Shown here in pieces: positions 41,053 to 61,240 of a stretch of DNA of 64,000 nt (position 1 is its first letter; every line of letters starts with the position of its first letter). Source of the DNA: an uncultured delta proteobacterium (GTDB taxonomy: Bacteria; Myxococcota; Myxococcia; Myxococcales; Myxococcaceae). Position numbers and translations under genes: made by a program. The notes under the pieces were generated by a model. The model made no database searches. It was not told the origin of the DNA and saw only the letters and a program-made list of their open reading frames with translations. The stretch is taken from assembly GCA_963711265.1 (NCBI GenBank), contig CAVQDL010000016.1, positions 13,235 to 77,234 on the forward strand, given 5' to 3'.

Positions 41053-41098
41053 CGCCTGGCCGGGGCCGCAACCCTCGCCTGGCTGTCTGCACTGGCAA

Positions 41099-43808: not shown

Positions 43809-44918
43809 ATGCCGTTAATCTGCAACTACTACGTCACGCTGCGCTGCAACCAGCGGTGCGTCTTCTGCAATATTCCGCATACCAACGCTGGCAGGCCGGA
43901 CCGCGAGCCGAGTCCCGCGCAGCTGGTGGCCAACCTGCGGGACCTCAAGCGGCTGGGCGTGCGCCTGCTCGACGTCACGGGGGGAGAGCCTCTCCTCTAT
44001 AGGCACGTCATCGGGCTACTGACGCTGGCCAAGCGAAGCCGCCTCCGGACCACCCTCACCACCAACGGCATGCTGTACCCGAAGTTTGCGAAGGCGCTGG
44101 CGGGAAAGGTTGACGCGCTCTTGTTCTCCGTCGAATCCCCGGACGCTGCCGAACACGACCGCATCCGGGCCACGCCCTCCTTCCAATTGGTGATGGAAGC
44201 CCTCCGCCTCGCGCGCCACCTGAAGCAGGACCTCTTCCTCTCGCACGTGGTGACGGATGAGTCCGTGGACCGCGTCGACGAGATGGTTCGCTTTGCAAGG
44301 CAGCAGCGGGCCATCCTCTTCCTCAACCCCTGCTTCTCCTTCTTCGGCAACGGCGGCCTCGCCCCGGAGAGGGCACAAGAACTCCACCAGTACGTCGGGC
44401 AACGGGACGTCATCGTCGACAGGGCCCAGCTTCGCCTCATCGCATCGGGCGGAAACGACCCGGCTGCACCCATCTGCCGCGCAGTGACGTCCAGCGTCGT
44501 CCTCTCGCCGGACAACCGGCTGTGGCTGCCTTGCTACCACTTCCGGCAGGCGGGCATCCCCATCGAGAACAACCTCTATGACGTTTACACCAAGCACCCG
44601 GCGGTACAGGACGCCAGGCGGACGCAAGGGACGCATGCCTTCTGCACCGGCTGCACGGTGTACTGCTACATGCGGAGCTCGCTGGGCTGGAAGTACCCCA
44701 TCGACACTGCAGCCCTGGCAGCACACTACGTCCGCGAGCGGGTGCGCCAGCGGGTGAAACGGGCACTTGGACCGCCGGAAGCGCCGCCGGCAGACCCGTC
44801 CGGAAGCGTCCACCCCGTCGTCCGTATGACGGCTGGGGCGGACCGAGCGGGCGGATGCCGGCCAGGCGCAGGAAGCGTCTCGGCGTCAGCGGTGCGGCCG
44901 CTTACCAGCGGACAATGA
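43809..44918 (+). CDS. radical SAM protein with a C-terminal SPASM/twitch-like Cys cluster
   Basis: The N-terminus is RCNQRCVFC (CxxxCxxC), then GGEPLL. The C-terminal cysteines are ...CRAVTS...PCYH...FCTGCTVYC. Confidence 0.8.
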   Translation: MPLICNYYVTLRCNQRCVFCNIPHTNAGRPDREPSPAQLVANLRDLKRLGVRLLDVTGGEPLLYRHVIGLLTLAKRSRLRTTLTTNGMLYPKFAKALAGKVDALLFSVESPDAAEHDRIRATPSFQLVMEALRLARHLKQDLFLSHVVTDESVDRVDEMVRFARQQRAILFLNPCFSFFGNGGLAPERAQELHQYVGQRDVIVDRAQLRLIASGGNDPAAPICRAVTSSVVLSPDNRLWLPCYHFRQAGIPIENNLYDVYTKHPAVQDARRTQGTHAFCTGCTVYCYMRSSLGWKYPIDTAALAAHYVRERVRQRVKRALGPPEAPPADPSGSVHPVVRMTAGADRAGGCRPGAGSVSASAVRPLTSGQ

Positions 44919-45708
44919 AGTCCGCGTAGTCGCCTTCGGCGGGTGACTGGGAGTTGTCGCCGTCCGTCATGAGGCCGAGACCAACGAAGTCCGGGACGTC
45001 CTGCAGCTTGCCTCCGTAGTGCTTGACGAACTCAGCTCTCGGGTCGACTTCGACGGTTTCCCAGACGTTGAGCGGACCGCCGGTCCGCAGAAGGATGGTG
45101 TCCCGGTCGAAAAACCACCCGCGGGACGACACGCAGGAAGTGCCAGGGGTCCCCAGGGTGCTCCACGCGTACTTGATGACCATGATTTTGATGCCTGCCT
45201 TGAAGGCGAGAAAGACGGAGGCGGCGTTGTCGGAGAAGCCCGGCCCACAGTCGTTCGAGTCCTTGGGGAGGGCGTGGACACGCCAGCGCCAGCTCACCTG
45301 CTTGACCGTGTGCCAGGCCTTGTCCGGGGTTTCCGCGTAGAGGACGACGTTTCCCAAGGGCGGGGTGTACACGCCCCGAATCATCCGGGTATCCCCTTCA
45401 CTCACCACCTCGTAGTAGTTGACCGGTCCCGAGTCCTGGGTGAAGACCTTGAACTTCTCCAGCGGAATGACCGTCTGGTGCTCGCCGATGGCTGGTGCCG
45501 GCACGGCACGGATGACGGGACCTGAGCTGCTGCCAGTGGCTGGGGCCGGCATGGCACGCATGGCGGGGGCCGACGTGCCATCAACGGCCGCAGCCGGCGT
45601 GGCACCGGTGGAGGGGGACGGGGTGCCGCCGTCGATGAGGGCGGGGCTGCCGCCATCGGCGAGGGCCGTGGCGAGGACAGCCATGAGCAAGTGACTGGCG
45701 TGGGGCAT
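44902..45708 (-). CDS. secreted DUF3047-like protein with a low-complexity Pro/Ala N-terminal region
   Basis: It has a signal peptide and repeated AMRAMPAPATGSSSGPVIRAVPAPA units, then a conserved 170-aa C-domain. Confidence 0.65.
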   Translation of the reverse strand: MPHASHLLMAVLATALADGGSPALIDGGTPSPSTGATPAAAVDGTSAPAMRAMPAPATGSSSGPVIRAVPAPAIGEHQTVIPLEKFKVFTQDSGPVNYYEVVSEGDTRMIRGVYTPPLGNVVLYAETPDKAWHTVKQVSWRWRVHALPKDSNDCGPGFSDNAASVFLAFKAGIKIMVIKYAWSTLGTPGTSCVSSRGWFFDRDTILLRTGGPLNVWETVEVDPRAEFVKHYGGKLQDVPDFVGLGLMTDGDNSQSPAEGDYADFIVRW

Positions 45709-45864
45709 GGAAAGGGGGGGGCTGACAGGGTGGGGTGAGCGGCTCTCCTAACGCGGAAGGCGCCCCGGGTCGATGGGACGTGCCGCCCAGGCCGCCTGCC
45801 TACGTGAGAGGGTTTCGGGCAGGCCCCGCAGAGGCCGGGCCTCTCCGGGGAGTGCCCGCAGCAG

Positions 45865-46410
45865 TCAACCAGGAGCGTCGAGCACGCGAAGTCGCTCGAG
45901 TTGGCGAATCGACCGGGACGGCATGCCGTCTGTCAGCACCACCAGGCGAAAGGGCCCGACGTCGGAGGTGAGCGGCTTTCCGTCGACCTCCCAGGCCAGC
46001 AGGGCCACCGTTTGGCCCATGCCCTCCGACACCTCCGCGCAGCTGAAGACGGCCTGGAAGCCGTCGCGGGCGGTGGCCACCAGCACTTGGCGGTAGCCCT
46101 TCACCTTCTGCGACAACGGGACGTCCTTCCCCATCGGCCCGGGCGTGAAGCCGAAGTGAGCCAGCACGTTGTCAACGCGGACCCCCTTCACCTGGTGGGT
46201 TTCGCCATGGGCAGTCCAAGCCAGCGTCACCGGTCCGAGCCGCTCGAGTTCAGCCACGCTGACGGTGCCCGTCTTGGGAAGCGAACCGTCCACCCGGACG
46301 GAGGGCGCCGGCGACGCCTCGAGCGCGACCGTCCCGGTGGGCAGAAGAGCCAGCCCCAGGAGGAACGACCACCGGAAGGCCCAAGGCCTACTTCGCAACC
46401 AGGACCTCAC
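45865..46410 (-). CDS. periplasmic molybdopterin-dependent-oxidoreductase-like (Oxidored_molyb domain) protein
   Basis: It has a signal peptide. GPFRLVVLTDGMPSRSIRQL resembles the sulfite-oxidase-family GPLRLVVPG...VKWL motif. Confidence 0.55.
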   Translation of the reverse strand: MRSWLRSRPWAFRWSFLLGLALLPTGTVALEASPAPSVRVDGSLPKTGTVSVAELERLGPVTLAWTAHGETHQVKGVRVDNVLAHFGFTPGPMGKDVPLSQKVKGYRQVLVATARDGFQAVFSCAEVSEGMGQTVALLAWEVDGKPLTSDVGPFRLVVLTDGMPSRSIRQLERLRVLDAPG

Positions 46411-46591
46411 TTGCCTTGATGATGACCGTCACCGCGTCCCCTGCCTTGAGGCCGAGTTTCTCCGCCGAAGCCCTGGTGATGGTGGACACCAACTCGTTCC
46501 CCCCGACATCCATGATGACTTCTGCCGTCAGTCCGTCGGTTTTCACGGACTTCACCTTTCCCTTGAGCTGGTTGCGTGCGCTGAGTTCCAT
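46388..46591 (-). CDS. mop: molybdenum-pterin-binding protein Mop (single TOBE domain molbindin)
   Basis: MELSARNQLKGKVKSVKTDGLTAEVIMDVGGNELVSTITRASAEKLGLKAGDAVTVIIKASEVLVAK is a TOBE domain. Confidence 0.8.
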   Translation of the reverse strand: MELSARNQLKGKVKSVKTDGLTAEVIMDVGGNELVSTITRASAEKLGLKAGDAVTVIIKASEVLVAK

Positions 46592-46608
46592 GTGAAGCCC
46601 TCCCACAA

Positions 46609-47589
46609 CTAGAAGTTCAGGATGTAGGTCAGACGGTAGGCAATGGAGTACGCCGGGTTGCTGGTGAGCGGAAAGTCGATGCCGAACATGAGGGAGTTCT
46701 TCGGGATGAACCAGAAGCGGATGCCGGGGGTCAGGCTGAGGATGGTGCTGATGTTGGTGCCGTCGAGCGGCGTGGTGCCGGAGAACTCGAGAAAGGTCGT
46801 GAAGTTCCCAAGCACGGGCGTGTTGGCGGGCAGCCAGGTCTCGGCCAGGGAGAGTGCGTAGCTGAAGTCATTCGTCGTGGCTCCCTTTTTGGGGGAGCCG
46901 ACCTGGTTGTCGTAGGTGAACGAGTAATACAGACCAAATCGGCCCAGCACCGGGACGACGGCGCCCATGTCTTGCCAGCCGGTGAGGGTGTAGCTCATGG
47001 TGGTCGTCGTCTGCCCGATGCTCTTGTTGGGAAACGCCACCTTGTAGTTGAAGGCGTAAGAGGCGGTTTCTGTGTCCACCAGCTGGAAACGCAGAATGGC
47101 GCCACCCCCAGGACCGTTGACCGGGGCCCCACTGGGCGGCTGATTCCACTGGTAGTTGGTGATGACCTCGAGCATGAGGCGTCGGTCCACCGCGTAGGCG
47201 ATGAGCGCATTCGCGAGCTGGGTGTCGTGCACCTTGGGGTTGTTGTTGACAGCCGTGTAGACGTAGTCGAGTCGGAACTCCTGCTCGAGGAAGTTGGTGG
47301 TGACGCGAAGCAAGGCCATGTCCGGCGTGCGGCGGTGACGGTGGACCCAGGCGTTGGCCCACCCCTCGGTGAAGAAATTCAACAGGGTCAGGTCCGCGGG
47401 CTGGCCACCTTCATGTTCCGCTGCCATGTCCGCGTGGGCCATGTCCAGCGCGCCCGGCGGGGCGGCAACGGCGCCCTCTGGCTGTGGTGCCTCTCCGGAC
47501 TGCTGCGCCGCTGCTCCCCCCGCCGACACCACCGAGACGAGGGTGCAGACCAAAACCGACCGTGCAAGTGGCATGTTCCCTCCCGACAA
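46609..47589 (-). CDS. outer-membrane beta-barrel porin
   Basis: It has a signal peptide, alternating amphipathic strands and a C-terminal ...YRLTYILNF ending in an aromatic residue. Confidence 0.7.
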   Translation of the reverse strand: MSGGNMPLARSVLVCTLVSVVSAGGAAAQQSGEAPQPEGAVAAPPGALDMAHADMAAEHEGGQPADLTLLNFFTEGWANAWVHRHRRTPDMALLRVTTNFLEQEFRLDYVYTAVNNNPKVHDTQLANALIAYAVDRRLMLEVITNYQWNQPPSGAPVNGPGGGAILRFQLVDTETASYAFNYKVAFPNKSIGQTTTTMSYTLTGWQDMGAVVPVLGRFGLYYSFTYDNQVGSPKKGATTNDFSYALSLAETWLPANTPVLGNFTTFLEFSGTTPLDGTNISTILSLTPGIRFWFIPKNSLMFGIDFPLTSNPAYSIAYRLTYILNF

Positions 47590-47716
47590 GGCGACCGCAG
47601 GACGTCCCCCGGCGGCTTTTGCACCGCCCGGCCATGGTTGAGAGACGAATGCTCCTCATAGCAACCTTAAATCGGGCTTAAAAGATCTTTATGTGCCTTT
47701 TAGTTACTTGCCGTGC

Positions 47717-48646
47717 ATGGAACGTCAGATGAGCGGTCCACCGCCCCCGCCCGAGGAGGCAGCGCGTGCCCGCCCGGGCGCCCCCTCCGTGCTGCTCACG
47801 ACAGCCGAGGTGGCAACGTTGCTCAGGGTCCACCCCAAGCACGTCTACCGTCTCCTCAAGAAGGGCCTGCCGGCGCGACGGGTCGGCTCCGAATGGCGCT
47901 TCGACCGCGCGGACGTCCTCGTCTGGTCGGGTGGCGCCACGCCGGCGGCCGACGCCGAAGCGCCTGTGGCCGCGCCCTCCGCGGGTGCCCCAGCCCTCGT
48001 CGCCGGCAATGGCGACGTCGTGCTCATGTCGCTGCTCCGGCTGGCCGCAGGCCAGGGCCCGCCGCTGCTCGGCTTCGTCCAGGCCGACCGGCGCTCAGGC
48101 CTGGACCTGCTGGCCGCGGGCGCCGTGCTCGCCACCGGAGCACACGCGGGCGGCTTTCCGACACATGTGGGCGTCGAGCGGGTCGCTAGAATCCATCTCG
48201 TCCGGCGCGAGATTGGCCTTCTGACGCGGCCCGGGGAAAAGGTCCTGCACCTCGAGGAGCTGTCCCAGCGGCGCCTCGCCTCACGGCCGACGTCCGCCGG
48301 CGTCCGCACCTACCTCGACGCGGCGCTGCGGGGGGCGAAGCTGGACCCCGAGCGCGTCCACCGCCGGGCCCAGCTGCTGTCCTCGCACCTGGACGTCGTC
48401 CTGGCCGTCGTGTCCGGGGGCGCCGACGTGGGCCTCGCCTCCCGGGCGTGGGGCGTCCGCGCCGGCCTCGACTTTCACCCACTCGCCACGGAGGCCTACG
48501 GGCTGCTCGTCAAGGCGCGGGACCTGGGCGAGGCCCCTGTCGTCCGCGTCTGCGAAGTCGCCCAGGGCTCGGCGTTCCGTTCCGAGGTCGGAGCCATCCC
48601 GGGCTACGACGCCGACGGGGCGGGCGACATCCGGTACGACGCCTGA
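47717..48646 (+). CDS. transcriptional regulator: N-terminal excisionase/MerR-type HTH fused to a periplasmic-binding-protein-like (molybdate-binding-like) domain
   Basis: The HTH motif is LLTTAEVATLLRVHPKHVYRLLKKGLPARRVGSEWRFDRADVLVW. The C-terminal domain has an alpha/beta PBP-like pattern. It is divergent from the porin-Mop operon. Confidence 0.65.
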   Translation: MERQMSGPPPPPEEAARARPGAPSVLLTTAEVATLLRVHPKHVYRLLKKGLPARRVGSEWRFDRADVLVWSGGATPAADAEAPVAAPSAGAPALVAGNGDVVLMSLLRLAAGQGPPLLGFVQADRRSGLDLLAAGAVLATGAHAGGFPTHVGVERVARIHLVRREIGLLTRPGEKVLHLEELSQRRLASRPTSAGVRTYLDAALRGAKLDPERVHRRAQLLSSHLDVVLAVVSGGADVGLASRAWGVRAGLDFHPLATEAYGLLVKARDLGEAPVVRVCEVAQGSAFRSEVGAIPGYDADGAGDIRYDA

Positions 48647-48665
48647 GGGCAGTGGGGCCCCACAG

Positions 48666-49208
48666 CTAGGCGGCAGCTGGCCGCTGGGCCAGCGCCCAGG
48701 TCGGGCTGACAATGACGGCGACGCCCGCGACGAGGAGGAGCAGGCCGAAGGTGCCGAACTGCAGGCAGCCCAAGGCGCCCGCCAGCGTGCCCACGGCGCC
48801 GGCCGCCCCCAGGAAGGCCCGACGACCTTCAGGGAGGGCGATGCTTCGCCAGGCAATGACGCCGCCGGCGGCGATGCCGCCGGCGAGGCAACTCACCAGG
48901 CACAGCGTCGTGCAGTCACGGAGGCCACAGCCCATGCCGGCCTGCATGGCGAGCGCAGGCACGAACAGCGGCACCAGGCCCGCTGCCAGCCCCGGCAGCA
49001 CGGCCCGGGCGCTCACACGGCGCCAAATGCCCGCGCCCAGCGCGGCGGCCAGTAACAGGCCACCGAGAAACGGCACCTGACTCTGGTGAGGCCGACTCAT
49101 CACGTATGCCACCAGGGCGACGGCCGCGGCAAGGCCAGGCAAGGCGACGCGAAGTCGCCCAACTTCATAGCTGAAGCGTGCGCGACGCAGCAGTTCAGTC
49201 GAGTCCAT
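48666..49208 (-). CDS. membrane anti-sigma factor candidate
   Basis: It starts MDSTELLRRARFSYEV, overlapping the sigma gene stop by 14 nt, and has 4-5 TM helices. Confidence 0.55.
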   Translation of the reverse strand: MDSTELLRRARFSYEVGRLRVALPGLAAAVALVAYVMSRPHQSQVPFLGGLLLAAALGAGIWRRVSARAVLPGLAAGLVPLFVPALAMQAGMGCGLRDCTTLCLVSCLAGGIAAGGVIAWRSIALPEGRRAFLGAAGAVGTLAGALGCLQFGTFGLLLLVAGVAVIVSPTWALAQRPAAA

Positions 49209-49725
49209 AGCGCGCCCTCCAGGCCGCTCGCAGACGGTGGACTGCTCGTTCGAGGCGTTTGCGGAACGTCGCCCCCGGCACCTCCGGCCGCGGCTCCAGC
49301 TCAATCCACGCAAGCAAGGTGTGCACGTCCTGCGCTGTCATCGTCCCCAGGACCTCCCCCAGGGCGCCACGCAACTCCTCTCGGGCCACGCTACGTTCCG
49401 CCTCGCCGTCGACACTGCTGGTGGCCAAGGGGGCGTCCGACGTCTCGCGGCGCCGGGTCCGCTTCCGCGCGAGGGTGCGGCATTCGGACGTCGCCACGGC
49501 GAGTGCCCAGCCCAGCGCATCCCCCTGCACGTCGAAGTCGGAGACCTGGAAGAAGAGTTTCTCCAAGGCCACCTGGGTCGCATCCTCCGCGTCAGCGTCG
49601 TTGCGCAGCATTCTACGACACCAGCGAAGGACGAGCGGGTGGAGCGCGTCGAAGACCGGGCGCAGCGCGCGCCGGTCTCCGTTCGCGAGGCGAACCATGC
49701 CTGCTTGAAGCTCCTGGCGCTCCAC
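49195..49725 (-). CDS. ECF RNA polymerase sigma factor
   Basis: Region 2 is DAEDATQVALEKLF and region 4 is DVHTLLAWIELEPRPEVPGATFRKRLERAVHRLR. Confidence 0.8.
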   Translation of the reverse strand: MERQELQAGMVRLANGDRRALRPVFDALHPLVLRWCRRMLRNDADAEDATQVALEKLFFQVSDFDVQGDALGWALAVATSECRTLARKRTRRRETSDAPLATSSVDGEAERSVAREELRGALGEVLGTMTAQDVHTLLAWIELEPRPEVPGATFRKRLERAVHRLRAAWRARYGLD

Positions 49726-49987
49726 CCGGTCGATTTCGCTCCGTCGTCGGCCCCCGTCTAGGGGCAGAACGGGCAGTGCGGGAAAAGACAGGCAGCACCG
49801 GCCGTGGAGGCCAACGCCGCCAGAGGCAGGGCCAGCACCGCGACGAACGCCAACTTCGCCTTCCAGTTTCGCATCGAGACACTCCCAATCAAGGAGGCGG
49901 GCCAGAAGTGGCCCGGCTCACCTGGCTATGGGCGCAAGCCGGGGTGAACGTGACCGCCCCGCCCAAAGGGGACCCGGCTGCCGCCTT

Positions 49988-52900
49988 CTAGGGCTCGGGA
50001 CCGGCCGGCGACGGCAGAATGCGCCCGCCGCCCGGCTGGAGGATGTCGAGCTTCTCGTCCGCCCGGTGGTCCTTGGCGATGAGCACGTAGATCGCCGGAA
50101 CGAAGAAGAGCGTGAACAGCGTGCCCGATCGCCATGCCCGGTCACCAGCACCAGGCCGATGCTGTTTCGCGCCGCGGCGCCCGGCGCCGGTCACGAGGGT
50201 CAGCGGGAAGTGGCCGGCGACCGTGGCCACGCTGGTCATGAGGATGGGCCGCAGGCGGGTCAGCGCCGCCTCCTTCACCGCCTCGATCTTCGCCTTGCCC
50301 GACTCCTGCAGCGTGTTGGCGAACTCGACGATGAGGATGCCGTTCTTCGAGATGAGGCCCACCAGCGTCACCAGCCCCACCTGCGAGTAGATGTTGAGGG
50401 TCGTGGTCCACCCGTCGGTGAAGAAGTGGATCTGCGGGTTCGGCATCTTCAGGAAGGTGAAGATCAGCGCGCCGAAGATGGCGAGCGGCACCGAGCCGGC
50501 GAGGATGACGAAGCGGGTCGCGGAAGCTGTTGAACTGCGCCGCGAGCACCAGGAAGATGAGGACGACCGCGAGGCCGAAGGCCGGCAGGAACTTGTCGCC
50601 CTCCTGCCGCAGCTGGCGCGACTCGCCCGTGTAGTCGATCTTGTAGCCCTTGGGCAGGATGCGTGCCCGCCTCGTCCTCGAGGAACGTCGAGGCCGTCGT
50701 CGAGCGAGCGCGGCGACGCCGCTGATCTTGACCGCGTTGAGCTGCTGGAAGCGGTTGAGCGAGCGCGGCATCACGCGTGTCCGGATGGTCGGCGATGGAG
50801 GACAGCGTCACCAGCTGCCCGTTCGGGCCGGTGACGTAGATGTCCTTGAGCTGCTCCGGGTTCAGCCGGTCGACGCGCAGCACCTGCGGGATGACCTTGT
50901 AGCTGCGGCCCGGCGATGCTGAAGCGGTTGACGAAGTTGCCGCCCAGCGCCGCGCCGATGTCCTGCGCCGACCTGTCTGCAGGTTCAGGCCCAGCTGCGC
51001 CACCTTCTCGCGGTCGATCATCGATCTCCGACTGCGGCTGGTCGAGCTTCACGTCGATGAGCGGCGGGAAGGCGAACTGCCCGCTCTTGGCCGCCGCCTT
51101 CTCCTGACAGCTGGCGGGCGAACTCCAGCACCTCGCGGTCTCGGCCGTCGAGGCGATGACGAACTCGATGGGGAAGTTGCCGCCGCCGGGCAGCGCGGGC
51201 GGCGAGCACGGCGAAGGTCTGGATGCCCGGGATGACGGCGACGCGCTTTGCTGCACCTCGGGGAGGATCTGCGCCGACGTTCCGCTTCCGCTGGTCCCAC
51301 GGCTTGAGCCCGTCACCCCAGAAGCCGCCGCTGGGGAAGGTGATCTGGAAGGTGAACTGCGTCTCGGGAATGTCGACCAGATGGCCTGGTTCACCGCCCT
51401 GGTCGAGGGCGATCAGCTGGTCGAGCGTGGAGTTGGCGGGCGTGTTGACGATGCCGAAGATGACGCCCTGGTCCTCGGTCGGCGCCAGCTCCTTGGCGGA
51501 CATGCTCGAACATCGACGACCGCCAGCGACGCTCAGCACGCCCCAGGCGATGTAGATGATGCCGCGCCGTGGCCAGCGACGACGTCGAGCGCCTGCCCGT
51601 AGAGCTGCCGGAAGCGCTCGAAGCCGCGCGTTGATGCGCGCGGGCCAGCCCGCGGTGGTCGTCGCCCGGCCGGAGCAGGTACCGCGACATCATCGGCGAC
51701 AGCGTGAGCGCGACGACGCCGGAGATGGTCACCGCGCCGGCCAGCGTGAGCGCGAACTCGCGGAAGAGCGAGCCGGTGAGGCCGCCCTGGAAGGCGATCG
51801 GGGCGTAGACCGCGGCGAGGGTGATGGTCATCGCGATGATGGGCCCGACCAGCTCGCGCGCGCCGGCCAGCGCAGCGTCTGCAGCGGCGTCATCCCCTCG
51901 CGGAGGTGACGCTCGACGTTCTCCACCACGACGATGGCGTCGTCGACGACGAGACCGACCGAGAGCACGATGGCGAGCAGGGTGAGCAGGTTCACGGTGA
52001 AGCCGAACACCTGCATCAGGAACACGGCGCCGATGAGCGACACCGGGATGGCCACCACCGGCACCAGCACCGAGCGCAGCGAGCCGAGGAAGAGGAAGAT
52101 GACGATGACGACGATGAGCAGCGTCTCGGCCAGCGTGCTTCACCACCTCGTCGATGGCGCTCTGGATGTACTCGGTCGCGTCGTAGGCGACGGTGGCCTT
52201 GATCTGCTCGGGCAGCTCCTTCTGGATGCTGCGCCATCTCGCACCCGCGCCCGCTTGATGACGTCGAGCGAGTTGGCGTTGGGCAGCGCCCAGATGCCCA
52301 TGAAGACGGCCGTCTTCCCGCTGAAGTGCGACGTCGGCGTCGTAGTCCTCGGCGCCGAGCACGACGTCGGCCACGTCCGACAGCCGGACGACCGCTCCGC
52401 CCGTCTGCCGGATGACCAGCTGCTTGAACTCGTCCACCGAGCGCAGGTCGGTGTTGGCGGTGAGGTTGACCTGGACCAGCGAGCCCTTGGTCTGGCCGAC
52501 CGCCGCCAGGTAGTTGTTGGTGGCCAGCGCCTGGCGCACCTGCGCCGGGCTGACGTTGAGCGCGGCCATGCGGTCGGGCTTGAGCCAGATGCGCATGGCG
52601 AAGGTGCGGGCGCCGAGGATGTCCGCGCGCTGCACGCCCTCGATCGCCGAGAGCCGCGGCTGCACCACGCGGACCAGGTAGTCGGTGATCTCGTTCTGCT
52701 TCAGGAACTCCGAGGAGAAGCTCAGGTACGCCGCGGCGAACTGGCTGTCGGCCGATGTCGATGTTGAGGACCGGGACCTGCGCCTCGGGCGGCAGGTCGC
52801 CGCGCACCTGGTCGACCTTGGAGCTGATCTCGGCCAGGGCCTTGGTCGGCGTCGTAGTTGAGCCGCAGGCGGGCACGTGATGGTGGAGAGGCCCTGGCTG

Positions 52901-53152
52901 CTGGTGGACTCGATGTAGTCGATGCCGTCGGCGGCGGCGATGACGCGCTCGAGCGGCGTGGTGATGAAGCCGCGCACCAGGTCCGCGTTGGCGCCGACGT
53001 AGACGGTGGTCACGGTGACGGCCGCGTTCTCGCTGCGCGGGTACTGGCGGACGTTGAGCGAGCGGATGCGCCTGGACACCGGCGATGACGATGACGAGGT
53101 TGACGACGATGCGCGATGACCGGCCGCCGGATGAAGAGGTCGGTGAAGCTCA
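49988..53152 (-). pseudogene. RND-family efflux permease (AcrB/CzcA-like) broken by at least 8 frameshifts, while keeping the normal ~1055-codon length
   Basis: RND segments appear in alternating frames: MSFTDLFIRRPV (start 53152), [125 protein letters not shown] and ...TLFTLFFVPAIYVLI. Confidence 0.7.
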
Positions 53153-54381
53153 TGTCGCCTTTCCCTTCAGCGGTCGATCTGGCGTTGGGGGCTCAGCTCG
53201 CGGCCGGGGACGAGTGTCGTTGTTCACCTGCACCGACTGCCCATTTCGCAGCTTGAACGCGCCGTTGCTCACCACCGTCTCGCCAGCCTTGAGCCCGGAC
53301 ACGACGGCCACGAAGTCGCCCCGGCGCTCCCCGGCACGCACGAAACGCTGCTGCGCGAGCGAGCTCGCTCTTCCCGTCGGCACTCTTCGCCTGCTCGAGG
53401 ACGTAGACCGAGTCGCCGTAGGGCGCGAAAAGGATCGCGGTGGCCGGAACGATCAACAGCTGCTCGACCTTGTCCGAGAAGACCTCGACGCTGGCGAACA
53501 TGCCAGGCGTGAGGCGGCCGTCGGGGTTGGCAACCGTTGCCCGCATGCGGACGTTGCGAGAGGTCGGGTCGACCTCCGGATTGATGGTGGTGACAGTGCC
53601 GTCCCAGGTCGCGCCCGGGAACACGTCGATCGTGACGGTGACTTTCTGGCCTAGCTTGACGTCCGCGAGCGCCTGCTGCGGCAGCTGAAACTCCGCGTAG
53701 ATGGGCGTCACCGTCTGCAACGAGACGATGGGCGTGCCGGAGGACACCACCTGGCCAAGCTCGACCTGGCGGATGCCGACGCGGCCGTCGAATGGCGCCC
53801 GGATGATCTTCTTCGCGATGAGGGCGCGGAGGTTGGCGACGCTGGCCGTTGCTTGCACCGCCCGCGCCTCTGCCGCTTGGAGGTCGGCTTCGGTGTTGAC
53901 GAGGTCCTTGCGCAGCCGACGGGCGCGCTCCAGGGTTTGCTTGGAAAGCGCCTCATCGGCGAGCGCCCCCTGCAGCTGGGCGTCTTCGGCGGAGGTGTCG
54001 AGGCGAACCAGGAGCTGTCCTTGCTTGACGAAGGCGCCGTTCTCGAAGGCGATTTCCCGCACGGTGCCAGTCAGCTCGGCCCCCAGCGTGACGCCCGCGC
54101 ATGGCGATAAGCGTCCCCACTGCGGAACGCTCCGGCCGCCACTCCACGGCTTGCACCTTGGTGGCCGTGACCGACTCCGGCGGCGGTAGCATGGTCTTGC
54201 CCGCCTTAATCATCGTGCCAATCTGGCCGACCTTCACGCCCGCCAGAATGAGTACAATCAACAGCAAGCCCCCGATGGCAATCAGCCAGGGGCGCAGCCG
54301 GCGCGGCTTGGACGGAGCGACGGCCGGGAGGGTCTCCTCGGGAACTTCATCCCGGGGTTGGGCTTCAGCAGGACGGAACAT
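53153..54381 (-). pseudogene. RND efflux periplasmic adaptor (membrane-fusion protein, HlyD family) with at least 2 frameshifts
   Basis: The N-terminus MFRPAEAQ...LIAIGGLLLIVLILAGV...VTATKVQAVEWRPERSAVGTLIAM shifts frame near 54100. The core is in ORF 53193-54062. The authentic C-terminus (GDFVAVVSGLKAGETVVSNGAFKLRNGQSV) lies in yet another frame (53150-53383). Confidence 0.7.
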
Positions 54382-54950
54382 GGTCGGGGGCCGGCAGGAA
54401 AGAGTTCGGCAACGAGATACCCATGTTCAGGTCCTTTGGCTTGCGAAAATGCATGAAGACCGCTGAATTCGCGGGAGCTCATTCTGTTTTGTTCCGGACG
54501 GCGACGGGGCACTCAGCCACCGCACCCCGAGCGGGGTGTTGGATGCCCTCACTCAGAGAAGGTTTCGCAACGGCCTTCCTGCCTCAACCCCCCCCCGGGG
54601 CAGGCCTACGGGCCGGCCCAAGGCCGATTGCCACTCACTGCCCGGATGGGGGGGGCGGGAGGCCCTGGGCCGCCGAGGAGGGGATTGCCGCAGAATGAGA
54701 CCCTTGCTCGCCCGGGACCCCTCCCCCCTTTGGGGCAGCGACTTACCGAGGCGCCGAAAGGGGGCATGGCAACTGGCGGCGGTCATCGGGGGGGAAGTGG
54801 GGCGTGCGTGGCCGGCCCCAGAAGCACCGCGCTGACTCGCCCGGGGCGTGCCCCCGCGGTAGGGAAGCCCTCCGGTTCTTCCGTTGGTCAAGCTCCCGAA
54901 GCGCCGAAGCGGGGTAGAAGCAGGCGCACGCAGGCGAGGAGGCACCCCAC

Positions 54951-55196
54951 GTGAGTACCGAGGCGGAGCTGAAGTCGGAACTGGAGCGTCTGAGGGCAGA
55001 GAACGAGGCGCTCAAGACGCGCGGCAGCAAGGGCGTGTCGATGAAGGTGAGCGAGAAGGGAGGCGTTTCTGTCTACGGCCTGGGGCGCTTCCCCGTCACT
55101 CTCTACCAGGAGCAGTGGCTCAAGCTGTTGGACCTGACCGAGGACATTCGCGCCTTCATCCGCGAGCACGAGAGCGCCCTCAAGAAGAAGGGCTAA
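54951..55196 (+). CDS. hypothetical coiled-coil protein (81 aa)
   Basis: GTG start with gaggagg 10 nt upstream. The product is [22 protein letters not shown]... Confidence 0.5.
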
Positions 55197-55204
55197 GGCC
55201 ACAT

Positions 55205-55345
55205 GTCGGGTCCGGAGCGGGATTCGCGATGGTCTTTGCTCTCCTCATCTCGCCCCTCCTCTGGAATCTCGGCACCTGGTACCTCGGCCTGCCCGGCTCC
55301 AGTTCCCACACCCTCATCGGCTCCATCATGGGCGTGGGCCTGGCC
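55205..55345 (+). pseudogene. internal remnant of a PiT-family inorganic phosphate transporter (about 47 codons)
   Basis: [47 protein letters not shown] aligns with E. coli PitA residues about 95-140 ([46 protein letters not shown]). There is no start or end. Confidence 0.55.
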
Positions 55346-55889
55346 AGCTGCTGGCCGGCCGTCCGCGGGGGGCTGCGGCGGGGACTAGACCGCCCGCCAG
55401 CAGCGTGTCGGCGTCGCTGACCTCGAACATGGACGGGGCCTCAATGTTGAGGAGCTTCACCACGCCGTTCTCGACGAGCATGGCGTAGCGCTGGGAGCGG
55501 ATGCCCATCCCGCGGGCGGTGAGGTCCTGGTCTAGGCCGAGGGCCTTGGTCCAGAGGGCGCTTCCGTCCGCGAGCATGCGGACCTTACCGTCGGCCTTCT
55601 GGTCCTTCCCCCAGGCGCCCATGACGAAGGCGTCGTTCACCGAGACGCACCAAATCTCATCGATGCCCTTGGCCCGGAAGTCGTTGTAGCGGGCCACGTA
55701 GCCCGGGACGTGCTTGCCCGAGCAGGTCGGGGTGAAGGCGCCCGGGAGGCCAAAGACGATGAGACGCTTGCCCTTGGCCAACTCCGACACCTTGAAGCTG
55801 TTCGGGCCCACCACGCAGCCCGGAGTCTCCTCTTCAATCATCTCGGTCAACGTTCCGTCGGGAAGTCGTTCACCAACACGAATGGTCAT
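55326..55889 (-). CDS. peroxiredoxin, Prx5 subfamily
   Basis: [22 protein letters not shown] has the peroxidatic Cys in the PGAFTPTCS context. Confidence 0.85.
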
Positions 55890-56842
55890 GGATTTCTAGT
55901 CCTCCTCGAGGGGGCTGTGCTTACCACACTGCCCGCTCGGGGCCCGAGTGTCGGGCGGAAGGGCCCGGTCGCCAGCGCGCGAAACTCCGTCATCGCCGCG
56001 CTGGGGCGGCGCCCCTCCACCTGCAGCCAGGTGAGTGTTCGGCGCAGGACGAGGTCCTCGACGGTGAGGGCGGCCAGCTCGCCCCGGGCAATCTCCTTCT
56101 GGACGGCAAGGATGCTGAGGATGGCGAAGCCCACACCGGCGGCGGCCAGCTGCTTCATGACCTCGTTTTCGCTGATTTCGAACAGCCGGGCCGGCGTCAC
56201 GCCGCGGTTGCGCAGGGCGGCCAGGACGACGTCGCGCGTCCCGGCCCCCTCTTCCCGGATGAGATACAGCTCCTCAAAGAGGCGCGCCGCCCGAAGGCGG
56301 CGCACCTGGGTCAGAGGGTGGGCCGGGGCCACCACCGCCACCAATTCGTCCTCCATCCAGGGGGACACCTGGACCCGGGTGTGGCTGACCGGGCCCTCCA
56401 CCACCCCCAACTCGATGGTGTTGGCCAGAAGCGCCTCCAGGACCGCCCGGGTGTTGGCCGCCACCAGGGTCAACTCGATGACCGGGTGACGGGCGTGGAA
56501 AGCGCCCAGGATGGGCGGGAGGAAGTAGCTGGCCACCGTCAGACTGGAGCCCAGGCGCAGCGACCCGCGTCGCAGCCCGCGCCGCTCGGCCAGCGCCTCC
56601 TCGGCGGCCCGTTCCTCGCCGAACAGCACCCGGGCGTGGGCCAGCAACACCCTCCCCTCCTCGGTGAGGCCGACCCCGCGGGCACTCCGCACCAGTAGCT
56701 GCGTGCCTAGCTGGGCCTCCAGCTGTCGCACCGCCTTGGAGATGGCCGGCTGGCTGACCCGAAGCACCCGCGCAGCCGCCGTGAAGCCTCCCCGCTCGGC
56801 CACCGCGGCGAAGAGACGAAGCGAGTTGAGATTCATCGCCAT
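55886..56842 (-). CDS. LysR family transcriptional regulator
   Basis: The N-terminal HTH is LRLFAAVAERGGFTAAARVLRVSQPAISKAVRQLEAQLG. Its stop overlaps the peroxiredoxin start. Confidence 0.85.
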   Translation of the reverse strand: MAMNLNSLRLFAAVAERGGFTAAARVLRVSQPAISKAVRQLEAQLGTQLLVRSARGVGLTEEGRVLLAHARVLFGEERAAEEALAERRGLRRGSLRLGSSLTVASYFLPPILGAFHARHPVIELTLVAANTRAVLEALLANTIELGVVEGPVSHTRVQVSPWMEDELVAVVAPAHPLTQVRRLRAARLFEELYLIREEGAGTRDVVLAALRNRGVTPARLFEISENEVMKQLAAAGVGFAILSILAVQKEIARGELAALTVEDLVLRRTLTWLQVEGRRPSAAMTEFRALATGPFRPTLGPRAGSVVSTAPSRRTRNP

Positions 56843-56950
56843 AGCTAAAAGTTATTGTATGCACACCAAGAATGTCTTGGCGATCTCGCTGGTCGGAGTG
56901 CACCTTCTTGCCTGCAGCGGCACTGACGCCGCCTTGAGGAGAAGACAGCC

Positions 56951-57106
56951 ATGTACAAGTTCAATGACAAGCAGCGGCAGCGCCTTCTGGAAGACGCCCT
57001 GGTGGCGGACCTGCTCGGCCCGGCGTCCAGCCTGAAGCCCCGCGTCCAGAAGACGGCCGTCCGGCCGGCGCCCCCGGCAGCGGTTCCCCAGGCGCCGGGC
57101 CAGGCG
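56951..57106 (+). CDS. small hypothetical protein (51 aa)
   Basis: gaggag sits 10 nt before the ATG. The product MYKFNDKQRQRLLEDALVADLLGPASSLKPRVQKTAVRPAPPAAVPQAPGQAAA has a low-complexity tail. Confidence 0.35.
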
Positions 57107-57170
57107 GCGGCCTAACCACCCACTCGGGCGGCATCCACAGGAAGGGCACCTGCGCTATAGAACCAGCGCC

Positions 57171-58181
57171 ATGCACCGCCTCCTTCTTGCCGCCTGTGTT
57201 TTGACGTCGGCCGCCGCCCTCGCACAGGCGGACGCCGGCAGCCCGGCCACGCTGGCCCTCCATGCGCTGGTGCTTCAGCCTGGCAGTCCAGGCCGCGTCG
57301 GGATGGACTACCTGGGCTACGAAGTCACCACCAACCAGGTGTGGGTTCCCGGCGGAAACACCGGCCGCGTCTTCGTCATCGACGCGACGAGCGAAACCAT
57401 CCGCACCGTCGAGGGCTTTCCCACCAAGGAGAAGGAAGGACGGACGCTGGGGCCGACGTCGGTGACCTTCGGGCCGGGGCGCGCCTTCGTCGGGAACCGG
57501 GCCGACTCCTCGGTGTGCTCTGTGGACTTGCGCACGCTGCAGCGCGGCGAGTGCGTGGCGCTCCCGGAGGCGCCGGATGGCCTGGCCTACGTGGCCACCA
57601 CCGACGAGGTATGGGCCACCACACCGAGGTCGCGCTCGCTCGTCATTCTCTCCGCGGCCAAGCACGGCCTGCCCATGGCCGGGCACATCCAGCTGCCGGG
57701 CGAGCCCGAGGGCTACGCGGTGGACCTGGCCGGGGGGCGTTTCTTCACCAATCTCGAGGACCGGAACGAGACGATGTCCCTCGACGTGCACACCCGGTCC
57801 CTCTCCGGCCACTGGCCCACCACCTGCAGTGCCGACGGGCCGCGCGGGTTGGCGCTGGACGCGGCCCACGGCGTGCTGGTGGTGGCGTGCACCGACCGCC
57901 TGGTGTCCTTCACCCTCAGCCCCAAGCCCGAGCGGCGAGGCAGCGTGGAGACCGGCCTGGGCGTCGACAACATCGACTTTGCCGCCAAGACGGGCACGGT
58001 GTGGGCGGCCGCCGGCAAGGCAGAGCGGCTGACGCGCGCCCAGCTTCTCCCCGACGGCTTGCTACACCCCTCCGGGGAGGCGCACACCTCGCCCGGCGTC
58101 CGGGTGGTGGTGGTGACGCCAGCCGGGAAGGCCTTCGCCGCGGACTCCGCTGGTGGACAACTCTGGGTGGCTGGCCCCTAA
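57171..58181 (+). CDS. secreted beta-propeller (YncE/lactonase-like repeat) protein
   Basis: It has a signal peptide. The repeats are VWVPGGNTGRVFVIDATS, LAYVATTDEVWATT and VLVVACTDRLVSFTL. Confidence 0.7.
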   Translation: MHRLLLAACVLTSAAALAQADAGSPATLALHALVLQPGSPGRVGMDYLGYEVTTNQVWVPGGNTGRVFVIDATSETIRTVEGFPTKEKEGRTLGPTSVTFGPGRAFVGNRADSSVCSVDLRTLQRGECVALPEAPDGLAYVATTDEVWATTPRSRSLVILSAAKHGLPMAGHIQLPGEPEGYAVDLAGGRFFTNLEDRNETMSLDVHTRSLSGHWPTTCSADGPRGLALDAAHGVLVVACTDRLVSFTLSPKPERRGSVETGLGVDNIDFAAKTGTVWAAAGKAERLTRAQLLPDGLLHPSGEAHTSPGVRVVVVTPAGKAFAADSAGGQLWVAGP

Positions 58182-58402
58182 GGGCAATGCCGTTCAGTTA
58201 AGGCCCAAGTGGCTGGCGCGGGCTGATCGCCACGCCAAGCCAGCGTCCGATGGGCACAAAGGAGCTGCCGATGGTTCTGATCCGGCATCTGGCTCAAACG
58301 TCCCTAAGTGATCGGCATTGCCCCTAAGGAGCCCCCGGAAGCCAGCGTCTGGGCGTCGGGGACGCCTGGACAGACGTGTCACTTTGTGTCACAATGTGAC
58401 CC

Positions 58403-58699
58403 ATGCCAAAGTCAGATCCCACAAGTCGCGCTCGCAAGGAGCGGGTCATTCACACCCGCGTCCCGGCGCCCCTCGAAGCGGAGTTGAAGCGCTTCGCCGA
58501 GGAACTGCGCATCCCGGTCTCCAACCTCATCCGCACCATCCTCGAGGACGCCCTGGCCGCCGCTGACCAGGCCGGCGAGCGCGTCGAGCGTGGGCTGCGC
58601 GACAGCGCGGCGCGGCTGGCGCATGGGCGGGACCATCTGCGGCGCACGCTGGTGGGCCGGCTTCCCGCCGGGACCAGCCGAAGGGGCCGCCCATCATGA
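58403..58699 (+). CDS. putative ribbon-helix-helix DNA-binding protein
   Basis: ERVIHTRVPAPLEAELKRFAEELRIPVSNLIRTILEDAL is RHH-like. Its stop overlaps the desaturase start (ATGA). Confidence 0.45.
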   Translation: MPKSDPTSRARKERVIHTRVPAPLEAELKRFAEELRIPVSNLIRTILEDALAAADQAGERVERGLRDSAARLAHGRDHLRRTLVGRLPAGTSRRGRPS

Positions 58700-59469
58700 C
58701 AGCCATCCTCATCTTGTTGGTGGCGCACTGGGTGACGTCCATCTTCGCCCAGACGCTCTTCTTGCACCGGTACGGCGCGCACCGGATGTTCACCATGAGC
58801 CCGGCCTGGGAGCGCTTCTTCTACCTGTTTGCCTTCGTCGCCCAGGGCCCTTCCTTCTTGGTTCCGCGCGCCTACGCCATCCTGCACCGCCAGCACCACA
58901 CCTTCGCGGACACCGAGCAGGACCCGCACTCCCCACGCTTCTTTTCCAACGTGGCCAGCATGATGTGGCACACCAAGCACCAGTACGACGTCTATGCCTA
59001 CCGGCGCGGCGAGCCGGAGGAGCGCTTCCTCGGCGGAACGCCGGAGTGGCCCTTCATCGACCGGCTGTCGCAGCGATGGACCACGCGCGTCGCGTTCGCC
59101 CTACTGTTCGTCCTCTTCTACGTGCACTTCGCCCCGTCGGCCTTCTGGTTCCTGCTGTTGCCCGTGCACTGGACGATGGGGCCCATCCACGGTGCCATCG
59201 TCAACTGGTGCGGCCACAAGTACGGCTACCGCAACTTCGACACCGACGACGTCAGCCGGAATACCCTCCGGCTCGAGTTCGTCACCATGGGCGAGCTGTT
59301 CCAGAACAACCACCACCAGTTCCCGACACGGCCCAACTTCGCCGTGCGCTGGTTCGAGCTCGACCCGGCCTACCAGCTGATGCGGCTTCTGGCCTGGGCC
59401 CGCATCATCCGCTTCGTCCCGGCGCAGGCCGCCCTGCCGGTCGTACCGGAAACGGCGGTCGCGGGGTGA
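58696..59469 (+). CDS. membrane fatty-acid desaturase
   Basis: The three His boxes are HRYGAH, HRQHH and HNNHH, with TM helices. Confidence 0.85.
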   Translation: MTAILILLVAHWVTSIFAQTLFLHRYGAHRMFTMSPAWERFFYLFAFVAQGPSFLVPRAYAILHRQHHTFADTEQDPHSPRFFSNVASMMWHTKHQYDVYAYRRGEPEERFLGGTPEWPFIDRLSQRWTTRVAFALLFVLFYVHFAPSAFWFLLLPVHWTMGPIHGAIVNWCGHKYGYRNFDTDDVSRNTLRLEFVTMGELFQNNHHQFPTRPNFAVRWFELDPAYQLMRLLAWARIIRFVPAQAALPVVPETAVAG

Positions 59470-60188
59470 TGCGGGATTTCCCCGCCTCGGACCGACCCGC
59501 CTCGGTGCTGGTGGCGCGGGAGGTGGCGGCCTTCGCCGCCTGGTCGCTGCTGCACCCCTTCGGCTGGAGGCCGCAGCGCAAGCGGACGCCGCGGCAGCAG
59601 CACCAGCGCACCGTCGTTTTCGTCCATGGCTGGGGCAGTAACCGCAGCGGCTTCCTCCCCCTGTCCGCCTACCTGCGCGCCCATGGCATCCGGCAGATGC
59701 TGGCCTTCGACTACCAATCCTCTTCTGGCATCGAGCGCGCCGCCGTGGCCCTCCGGGACTTCCTGCGGCACGCCGTGCGCGGGGGGCGAATCGACCTCGT
59801 CTGCCACAGCCTGGGTGGCGTCGTGGCCCGCGTCTACCTCGAGCAGCTGGCAGGGGCGCGACGGGTCGACCGCTGCATCACCCTCGGGACGCCCCACCGG
59901 GGGACCTACAACGCCTACTGGTTGGGCACCCGCGTCGGGCGGGAGCTCCGTCCGGATTCCGCGCTCCTGGAACGGCTAGCCCGCACGGCGGGCCAGGCCC
60001 CCGGCGTCCGCTACACCTCGGTTGTCGCCGGCTCGGACAACATCATCATCCCGCGCGTCTTCGCCGCCGGAGACGACCTGGTCCTCGTGCCGGACGTCGG
60101 CCACCTGGGCATGCTGTTTTCGCCGGCGGTGGCGCGGGCGGTGCTGGACCGGCTGCTGCCACGCCAGATTTGCGTGGCGACACCGTGA
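59469..60188 (+). CDS. alpha/beta hydrolase (lipase/esterase-like)
   Basis: VVFVHGWGSN is an oxyanion-hole region and CHSLGG is the GxSxG nucleophile. Its start overlaps the upstream stop (TGATG). Confidence 0.8.
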   Translation: MRDFPASDRPASVLVAREVAAFAAWSLLHPFGWRPQRKRTPRQQHQRTVVFVHGWGSNRSGFLPLSAYLRAHGIRQMLAFDYQSSSGIERAAVALRDFLRHAVRGGRIDLVCHSLGGVVARVYLEQLAGARRVDRCITLGTPHRGTYNAYWLGTRVGRELRPDSALLERLARTAGQAPGVRYTSVVAGSDNIIIPRVFAAGDDLVLVPDVGHLGMLFSPAVARAVLDRLLPRQICVATP

Positions 60189-60270
60189 CTTCACTGGAAG
60201 CGACCACCGAGAGTCGTTAGCCCATCCCGGACTGGACGGCGGAGCTGTCCTCTGGGAAGGTGCCTTTAAC

Positions 60271-61206
60271 GTGCTGCGCTACAGAGCCGACGTCCGCACC
60301 CTTGGAATTCTCGCGACTTACGCCGCCCTCTTCATCACGGGGTGGATGGTGGCGCCCACTGGGCCGCTGCTTTGGGCGTGGGTGGCGGTGCTGTCCTACA
60401 ACTCGTGGCTGTGCGCGGTGGTGGCCCACAACACGGTCCACTGCCCGGTCTTCACCCAGCGCTGGATGAATCGTGCCTTCCAGGTCTGGGTCAGCCTGTC
60501 CTACGGCTTTCCCATCAGCGAGTACGTGCCCGGTCACAACCTCTCCCACCACCGCTTCACGGAGATGCGCGAGGACGTCATGCGCACCAGCAAGGTGCGC
60601 TTCCAGTGGAACTTCCTCAACTTGGTCTTCTTCTTCCCCGCGGTAACACCGGCTATCCTCCGCGGCAACGCGCGCTTCAAGCAGCTGCGGGGCAGCAAAA
60701 TCTCCGCCTGGCACAACCAGTTCCTTCTCGAAGCGGTGGTGGTGTGGGGCCTGAAGGTGGTCCTGCTCTTGGTCGATTGGCGCAAGGCGCTGCTGTTCAT
60801 GGTGGTGCCGCACCTGGTTGCCAACTTCGGCATCGTCACCATCAACCTGCTCCAGCACGACGGCTGCGACCCGGAGCATCCCGTCAACCACTCGCGGAAT
60901 TTCGTGAGCCCGCTGTTGAACTTCCTGACCGTGAACAACGGCTACCACGGCATTCACCACAACGAGCCAGGGCTGCACTGGAGCCTGCTGCCGGCCGCGC
61001 ATGCCGCGCGCATGCGGCCGACCCTTCACCCCAACCTCGAAGAGCGGTCCATGGTCGGCTACATCTTCAAAGCCTACGTCTACCCAGGGAGGCGCCTGGC
61101 CTATGACGGCAGGCCGCTGGTGGTGAAGGACCTGGGTCCTGACCGCGACTGGGTCCAGCCCGAGGACGCAGACTTCGCGGGAAGCCGCACCATGGCCCCG
61201 GCCTAA
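60271..61206 (+). CDS. fatty-acid desaturase family membrane protein
   Basis: The His boxes are HNTVHC, HNLSHH and HGIHH. The GTG start is preceded by ggaagg. Confidence 0.8.
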   Translation: MLRYRADVRTLGILATYAALFITGWMVAPTGPLLWAWVAVLSYNSWLCAVVAHNTVHCPVFTQRWMNRAFQVWVSLSYGFPISEYVPGHNLSHHRFTEMREDVMRTSKVRFQWNFLNLVFFFPAVTPAILRGNARFKQLRGSKISAWHNQFLLEAVVVWGLKVVLLLVDWRKALLFMVVPHLVANFGIVTINLLQHDGCDPEHPVNHSRNFVSPLLNFLTVNNGYHGIHHNEPGLHWSLLPAAHAARMRPTLHPNLEERSMVGYIFKAYVYPGRRLAYDGRPLVVKDLGPDRDWVQPEDADFAGSRTMAPA

Positions 61207-61240
61207 AGTCCCGGGGAGTCGGCGCCGGGGGGGGGAACGC

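Follow-up and report, generated by a model that had tools for sequence, protein, structure and literature searches.

Does an efflux operon whose two genes are broken into pieces in all three reading frames record the recent loss of a pump, or a flaw in the written record of genes that still work? The question is posed by the minus strand between 49988 and 54381 of the window (the whole stretch of 64,000 nucleotides analysed here), where peptide segments of an RND permease and of its periplasmic adaptor alternate among all three frames and neither gene retains an intact ORF. A first-pass annotation had already reported RND and adaptor segments in several frames, a description that our analysis bears out; it went on to favour a real operon gathering recent or compensating indels, and offered a local error hotspot as the alternative. 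We find it probable instead that the ~39 frameshifts are a consensus artefact, in which two variants of the operon were merged, and that the organism most likely carries an intact operon of an ordinary kind.

The identity of both genes is clear once their frames are restored. Syntenic with an intact 401-aa gene in the closest relative, L001 (93% nucleotide identity), the frame-restored adaptor matches the RND_mfp profile TIGR01730 over positions 1-321 of 322 with 246.6 bits (cutoff 94.9). The frame-restored permease aligns over residues 1-1021 with the 1017-position profile NF007133 (its positions 1-1010; E=0) and over residues 4-1014 with the NCBIfam profile RND_permease_2. Its scores lie under the curated cutoffs of NF007133 (1104.6 bits; cutoff 1763), NF033617 (1063 bits; cutoff 1250) and TIGR00915 (707 bits; cutoff 940). 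The predicted product is certainly a member of the general RND permease family; these scores do not support its placement in any named NCBIfam subfamily, and therefore place the pump in a myxobacterial branch. Most similar to it are intact PF00873 proteins of 1041-1046 aa from Myxococcaceae MAGs, and orthologues at 79-90% identity bear the same domain; the closest protein in a search of 5.8 billion was P0001 of L001 (88% identity to an approximate query), and a scan of genome contigs likewise returned the L001 contig as its top match (90% identity). Exact look-ups of three proteins encoded nearby gave no hit to a second assembly of the strain, two of them perhaps because a different start codon had been chosen. 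The permease is strongly conserved, with ~80% amino-acid identity across families.

In its arrangement the operon resembles AcrAB/MexAB-type (HAE1) systems, with an adaptor gene followed by a permease gene of ~1040 aa and full-length profile matches for both, but it has no adjacent outer-membrane factor gene and is followed instead by a gene for an ECF sigma factor (Table 1). That gene, syntenic in L001 and L002, is intact, with no indels relative to L001, and forms the edge of the insertion hotspot.

Table 1. Coordinates, strand and defining evidence of the features discussed, numbered from the first letter of the window
Feature	Coordinates	Strand	Remarks
Isolated +1 'GCAG' (readable as GAG plus CAG), non-homopolymer	14452..14455	+	Inside enoyl-CoA hydratase gene
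Isolated +1 'GCCG' (readable as GCC plus GCG, both Ala)	24297..24300	+	Joins ORF 23925.. to ORF ..26814
ECF sigma factor gene	49195..49725	-	Directly downstream of pump gene; TIGR02937 sigma70-ECF match
RND inner-membrane permease gene (HAE1-type, ACR_tran)	49988..53153	-	3166 nt vs 3129 nt in L001
Insertion hotspot	50127..54097	.	37 insertion events in 3971 bp
RND periplasmic adaptor (membrane-fusion protein) gene	53167..54381	-	Ends mapped via L001 alignment
Conserved 81-aa ORF	54951..55196	+	81-aa gene also in L001 and L002
PitA/PHO4 phosphate transporter relic, ~52 codons, internal	55193..55348	+	tblastn, NCBIfam, Pfam
Peroxiredoxin gene (AhpC/TSA, Redoxin)	55326..55889	-	+1 G in G-run at 55398

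DNA alignment to L001 and L002 placed ~39 frame-breaking indels in the two genes relative to their intact syntenic orthologues, comprising 37 insertions and 2 deletions; the earlier estimate of about 10 frameshifts was thus too low, the actual density being about four times greater. Three +1 insertions fall in the adaptor gene (54097, 53359 and 53180), together with an in-frame +6 at 53196, while the pump gene carries 34 insertions (thirty +1, three +2 and one +4) and two deletions, of 2 nt at 51250 and of 1 nt at 51134. The pump gene exceeds its L001 counterpart by 37 nt and the adaptor gene by 9 nt, which speaks against the suggestion that compensating indels had left the total length intact. 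Insertion density peaks at 50500-52000, which is also the stretch most diverged from L001 by per-500-bp identity and indel counts; that insertions are commonest where the gene is most variable is a point in favour of merged haplotypes.

A comparison of indels per kb with the neighbouring sequence, proposed in the first-pass annotation, confirms that the excess is local: against the 37 insertions in under 4 kb, the 18 kb of flanking sequence aligned to L001 holds ~3 frame-breaking indels in coding sequence, and frame assignment by a composition-based Viterbi model puts at least 15 same-strand switches of frame in the operon, as opposed to 3-4 candidates in the remaining ~60 kb. Across the whole window we count four frameshift candidates outside the operon, at about 14452, about 24299, 62434 and 55398, so that the statement that the rest of the 64 kb has two frameshifts stands as to locality and fails as to number.

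The inserted bases have a distinctive character. Deleting them yields an open 401-aa adaptor gene and an open 1042-aa pump gene with no stops, and the restored genes have dN/dS values against L001 of 0.25 (adaptor) and 0.18 (pump), compared with 0.02-0.28 for 20 neighbouring genes. Homopolymers are extended by 2 of the 33 single-base insertions, where 50% would be expected (p=5e-8), and a codon third position is touched by 32 of 38 insertions (p=0.013). Each of the 27 single-base pump-gene insertions adds a base that occurs, among 10 orthologues, in the column immediately beside it. Simulated random insertions, once re-aligned, would do so at a rate of 0.43 (p about 1e-10), and the excess persists when the null is matched to the neighbouring bases (p=3.6e-9). 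With codon positions assigned through L001 codon coordinates, the variable site implied by these matches lies at codon position 3 in 19 of the 27 cases, and the inferred alternative allele is synonymous in 15 of them, fewer than close strains would give, with some assignments ambiguous.

Several multi-base and some single events can moreover be read as the union of two in-frame alleles, the second of which is found in an orthologue: ACGT as ACG plus CGT, GCTG as GTG plus CTG, ACGG as AGG plus CGG, and ACAG as ACA plus ACG. No such clean union was obtained for the deletions at 51250 and 51134 or for the multi-base events at 51376 and 51241. A mosaic test found the pump gene nearer to distant orthologues (L007, L010, L011) than to L001 in several 150-nt windows, and uniformly nearer to these three than L001 is, a pattern for which GC3 composition could account.

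Because the insertions are local, outnumber deletions 37:2, avoid homopolymers, supply the orthologue allele of the adjacent site and, when removed, restore both genes, a merging of two haplotypes in the consensus explains them best. From the shape of the sequence we infer a read population of two haplotypes: an assembler or polisher would, across ~4 kb, have combined two operon versions that differ slightly, derived either from co-assembled strains or populations or from a collapsed second copy, and at many sites of substitution between them would have written both alleles consecutively, choosing neither. Each site with a doubled allele would then produce a +1 insertion, and two such sites close together a +2. 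The local error hotspot named as the alternative in the first-pass annotation is a better explanation than decay, with the difference that the errors are non-random and look as though both alleles of variant sites had been placed side by side. Three observations weigh on the other side of a merger, namely its confinement to ~4 kb, the synonymous share of the inferred alleles, and the four events that are not clean unions.

Consensus errors of this kind have a precedent. In early FALCON consensus sequence, indels arose computationally at positions where the merged haplotypes disagree, and these threw out of frame genes that the organism carries intact (Korlach et al. 2017, Gigascience, PMC5632298); long-read metagenome assemblers, for their part, collapse ~98.7%-identical strains into one consensus (PMC8302730). 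The likeness to the FALCON errors is that the extra bases of the window are alternative alleles of an adjacent site. Whereas that case concerned a diploid bird genome, the variants here, as read from sequence alone, would come from bacterial strains or populations, or from a collapsed copy. Our literature search, which turned up this direct precedent, did not find the signature described for bacterial MAGs.

How well would decay in the cell account for the same observations? A genuine, very recently inactivated operon, that is, a young pseudogene with the insertions in its DNA at a locus where the PiT phosphate transporter is being lost as well, seems to us improbable, even though the frameshifts stand in the given sequence, the genuine PiT relic is 800 bp distant, and PiT content varies among relatives, so that the neighbourhood does change. 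The operon shares with natural pseudogenes multiple frameshifts in a gene with intact neighbours, but differs from them in being dominated by insertions, in avoiding homopolymers, in the link of its extra bases to wobble sites and orthologue alleles, in lacking stops and in a dN/dS that is not relaxed. Mira, Ochman and Moran reportedly described in 2001 a deletion bias in the decay of bacterial pseudogenes, the reverse of what we see; spontaneous +1 events favour homopolymers, which these insertions rarely extend; and we know of no mutational process that would, in all 27 cases, insert the orthologue allele of an adjacent wobble site. Taken together, the ratio of insertions to deletions, the avoidance of homopolymers, the wobble adjacency, the matching alleles and a restored gene that is stop-free, with normal dN/dS, leave decay unsupported, and with it the first reading of the operon as gathering recent or compensating indels. 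Slimmer still is the chance that the organism's DNA really contains the extra bases, as the product of a very recent burst of +1 events, each placing an alternative allele beside the resident base at a polymorphic site. Aberrant processing of heteroduplex mismatches, following recombination with a diverged RND allele, is a conceivable route to real insertions, which would amount to an undescribed mutational mechanism and to the inactivation of genes during recombination; on the evidence, this is unlikely.

Other artefacts must be set against a merger of haplotypes as well. Homology- or reference-guided polishing, in which a draft 'corrected' with related genomes or a mixed read set receives relatives' alleles beside its own bases, would make a second haplotype in the sample unnecessary; it agrees with the presence of all 27 inserted bases in orthologues at the adjacent site, and the RND gene, being very conserved, would attract homologous sequences more than its neighbours do. 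Real strain mixtures, however, yield the same pattern equally, and we found no such polishers documented as making insertion-only errors; we consider this reading unlikely. Random read errors, left unpolished where a noisy long-read assembly had low coverage, would fit the local nature of the hotspot, as the other isolated frameshifts in the window fit an assembly with some errors, but they should include deletions and errors of homopolymer length, ignore codon position and match the adjacent orthologue allele in ~43% of cases rather than in every one, and the pump gene's divergence profile, with its dN/dS of 0.18, shows no sign of too many non-synonymous substitution errors; such an origin is very improbable. 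Programmed recoding, with ribosomal frameshifting or transcript editing decoding the frameshifts, has preserved overall length in its favour and nothing further. The insertions are absent from 10 of 10 aligned orthologues and from the listed homologues, which have single intact ORFs of 1034-1060 aa; this alignment of the orthologous operon, a check put forward in the first-pass annotation, contradicts conserved programmed frameshifts, and ~39 events in 4.4 kb without a common slippery motif are incompatible with known recoding, whose probability here is negligible.

The PiT fragment next to the operon has a different history. Its earlier description as a stub is borne out by tblastn, which aligns it with residues 84-135 of the 498-aa PHO4 protein of L002 (85% identity, E=5e-22), and by profile matches to NCBIfam PitA (positions 87-134 of 498; 67.4 bits, cutoff 800) and Pfam PHO4 (E=6e-11). 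It keeps ~10% of a PitA/PHO4 transporter, without a start or a membrane-complete domain. At the same syntenic place the PiT gene is intact in L002 and L004, survives as a 3' remnant in L006 and is absent from L001. Judged by these alignments, the fragment is a genuine relic of deletions on both sides rather than a gene. It illustrates natural decay by large deletions, unlike the insertions of the operon; as the outcome of a different process it lends no support to operon decay, for which it had been taken as a sign of a locus shedding genes, and it is unrelated to the efflux-operon frameshifts. The 81-aa ORF beside it, which in relatives immediately precedes the PiT gene in the same orientation, shows 97.5% amino-acid identity to L001 with a dN/dS of 0.06, and has no match in Pfam or NCBIfam.

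The main relevance of these results is to the quality control of deposited records. Taken at face value, the deposited record would lead to the annotation of an efflux operon that is dead, or of a series of ORF fragments, though the organism's pump very probably works. The signature consists of insertions alone, no lengthening of homopolymers, and an extra base that is the orthologue allele of the adjacent site. It is easily computed without the reads, and could separate errors of a merged-variant consensus from genuine pseudogenes among long-read genomes and MAGs for which reads are not at hand.

Two of the frameshift candidates outside the operon, those at 14452 and about 24299, look the same in signature as the operon insertions when their letters are read as paired codons, a further point in favour of merged variants. 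In the enoyl-CoA hydratase gene, Pfam ECH_1 positions 3-175 are matched in one frame (13873-14451) and positions 182-250 in the next (14453-14671); the second frameshift was read by eye from the sequence, and both of the parts that it joins match Lactonase-type weakly. The extra G at 55398 replaces the last 3 codons of the peroxiredoxin gene with a 23-residue tail, giving a product of 187 aa instead of 167.

Translation of the three minus-strand frames bore out the first-pass annotation's observation that the two-gene efflux operon of the window is frameshifted: RND and adaptor peptide segments repeatedly switch frame. A large protein search with a rough, hand-joined pump protein retrieved intact RND permeases in their thousands, 1034-1060 aa long, with Myxococcaceae and Anaeromyxobacteraceae MAGs providing the best matches. 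The closest relative, L001, is a MAG from the Myxococcaceae (isolate Chersky_835, contig JADGRA010000077.1) and is collinear with window positions 63437..41072, the flanks matching at 94-95% nucleotide identity; exact-protein look-ups, a genome scan and the large protein search yielded no relative closer than this. L001 and a second relative, L002, have the same gene order: LysR regulator, peroxiredoxin, the position of a PitA/PHO4 phosphate transporter (PiT), 81-aa ORF, adaptor, RND pump, ECF sigma factor, 180-aa gene and HTH_17/PBP gene. The 570 bp of non-coding DNA separating the adaptor gene from the 81-aa ORF include a 42-bp segment (54852-54893) that is missing from L001.

Alignment to the orthologous operon in relatives and a comparison of indels with the neighbourhood, both checks proposed at first pass, were carried out by mapping the extra bases against L001 and L002 (against L001 over 22 kb). 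The adaptor gene has three +1 insertions and one in-frame +6 relative to L001, while the pump gene shows 34 insertions (thirty of +1, three of +2 and one of +4) along with two short deletions, so that the operon contains approximately 39 frame-breaking events rather than the ten or so originally counted. Nor are the indels compensating, as had been suggested: the L001 counterpart of the pump gene is 37 nt shorter. The flanking sequence, 18 kb of which was aligned to L001, contains few indels, mostly intergenic or in-frame, with about three breaking a coding frame. Across the full 64 kb, a Viterbi frame analysis based on composition independently placed at least 15 same-strand frame switches within 50019-54340 against 3-4 candidates elsewhere. 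These results confirm a genuine, local hotspot.

Features of the efflux operon, frameshifts elsewhere in the window and the PiT relic
Feature	Position	Strand	Details
Periplasmic adaptor gene, first of two-gene efflux operon	54381..53167	-	
RND permease gene, second of efflux operon	53153..49988	-	
+1 frameshift splitting enoyl-CoA hydratase gene	14452-14455	+	GCAG, readable as GAG + CAG; same signature as pump gene
Probable +1 frameshift linking ORF 23925-24566 to 956-aa ORF ending at 26814	24297-24300	+	GCCG, readable as GCC + GCG
+1 A vs L001, homopolymer-type, beta-lactamase-family gene	62434	-	
+1 G vs L001, homopolymer-type, last codons of peroxiredoxin gene	55398	-	187 aa vs 167 aa (20 aa longer)
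Internal PiT relic, ~52 codons	55193-55348	+	residues 84-135 of 498-aa PHO4/PitA, 85% identity, E=5e-22

Outside the operon, two isolated frameshifts share the non-homopolymer form of the operon insertions. One splits the Pfam ECH_1 profile, with positions 3-175 read in one frame and positions 182-250 in the following frame; the other lies in a gene whose large product has weak beta-propeller/lactonase-type matches. The two homopolymer-type differences could each be real or an ordinary homopolymer error, in either the window or L001; given these further frameshifts, the record as a whole is not error-free.

The abundance of frameshifts had been read as an operon in decay, but once the window-specific extra bases are removed, both genes are free of stop codons and encode an adaptor of 401 aa and a pump of 1042 aa. 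Their dN/dS values against L001 (0.25 and 0.18, respectively) fall inside the range of 20 neighbouring genes (0.02-0.28), pointing to normal purifying selection on the sequence beneath the frameshifts. The indel spectrum, 37 insertions to 2 deletions, also runs against the deletion bias typical of bacterial pseudogenes, and the adjacent PiT relic reflects loss by large deletion, unlike the pattern in the pump gene. Only 2/33 single-base insertions extend a homopolymer, where 50% would be expected of random insertions here (p=5e-8); slippage mutation or typical homopolymer read errors would give the opposite pattern. A real young pseudogene is thus very unlikely, as is, about equally, a hotspot of random read errors, one form of the alternative raised at first pass.

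What the inserted bases are argues for a narrower form of that alternative. Of 38 insertions, 32 immediately precede or follow the third position of a codon (p=0.013). When the pump gene was aligned with 10 orthologues, each of its 27 single-base insertions matched an orthologue allele of the directly adjacent column while differing from the window's own base there; in 19/27 the variable site falls at codon position 3. Simulated random insertions, none extending a homopolymer and re-aligned in the same way, match at a frequency of 0.43 (p about 1e-10 for 27/27), and a null preserving the left, inserted and right bases gives p=3.6e-9. By eye, many events are the shortest string holding two in-frame alleles: GCGC (GCG + GCC, both Ala), ACGT (ACG, Thr, as in relative L007, + CGT, Arg, as in most orthologues), GCTG (GTG + CTG), ACGG (AGG, found in relative L006, + CGG, both Arg), ACAG (ACA + ACG, both Thr) and CTGCAGAC, which contains both CTGCAG and CTCAAC. 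Insertion density tracks local variability, peaking at 50500-52000 (identity to L001 0.85-0.88) and falling to zero at 53500-54000 (0.95).

We consider it probable, from these sequence patterns, that the frameshifts are an artefact of a consensus merging variants. The operon sequence would then be a common supersequence of two versions that differ slightly, both bases being retained at sites of difference, which would account for the excess of insertions, homopolymer avoidance, frequent wobble placement and orthologue alleles alike. The two isolated frameshifts of like form elsewhere in the window lend this reading support. The versions could be co-assembled strains or populations, the unusual conservation of the RND pump protein (~80% aa identity across families) favouring cross-recruitment of reads; they could instead be a collapsed second copy or, in a variant we regard as unlikely, alleles brought in by homology-guided or reference-guided polishing. 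Computational errors of this kind are known: Korlach et al. (PMC5632298) described indels introduced into a long-read consensus where merged haplotypes differ, and report their removal by phasing. In metagenomes, long-read assemblers merge strains that are ~98.7% identical into a single consensus (PMC8302730). Weak points of the merged-variant reading are its confinement to ~4 kb, inferred alternative alleles that are synonymous in only 15/27 cases, and two deletions and two multi-base events that do not resolve cleanly as allele unions. The pump gene's dS to L001 exceeds that of most neighbours roughly twofold (0.30 versus ~0.13), and several of its 150-nt stretches lie nearer the distant orthologues L007, L010 and L011 than L001 (for example, 0.95 to L007 versus 0.90 to L001); a chimeric consensus, real recombination or a GC3 composition effect are all possible sources.

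The PiT fragment itself, backed by NCBIfam PitA and Pfam PHO4, stands, though not as a sign of efflux-operon decay. An intact 498-aa PHO4/PitA occupies exactly the same position, flanked by the peroxiredoxin gene and the 81-aa ORF, in L002 (6030-7526) and in another relative, L004 (5977-7470); L006 keeps only a frame-broken 3' remnant (7180-7691), and nothing is left in L001 (7891-8007). This range of states across close relatives implies that PiT loss in the clade is genuine, repeated and independent, and that it proceeded by large deletions, as is expected when bacteria lose genes.

Elsewhere in the window, fifteen tRNA genes (Leu, Met, Arg, Phe, Asp, His, Ile, Glu, Asn, Gln x2, Gly, Lys, Thr and Trp) form a 1.8-kb array (28388-30215, minus strand) that directly adjoins an HNH endonuclease gene (27806-28348, minus strand). 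The array may be derived from a mobile element or phage, with an integration-site remnant; a partial tRNA-like match (31102-31156, plus strand; Rfam model positions 9-63) lies ~900 bp past it.
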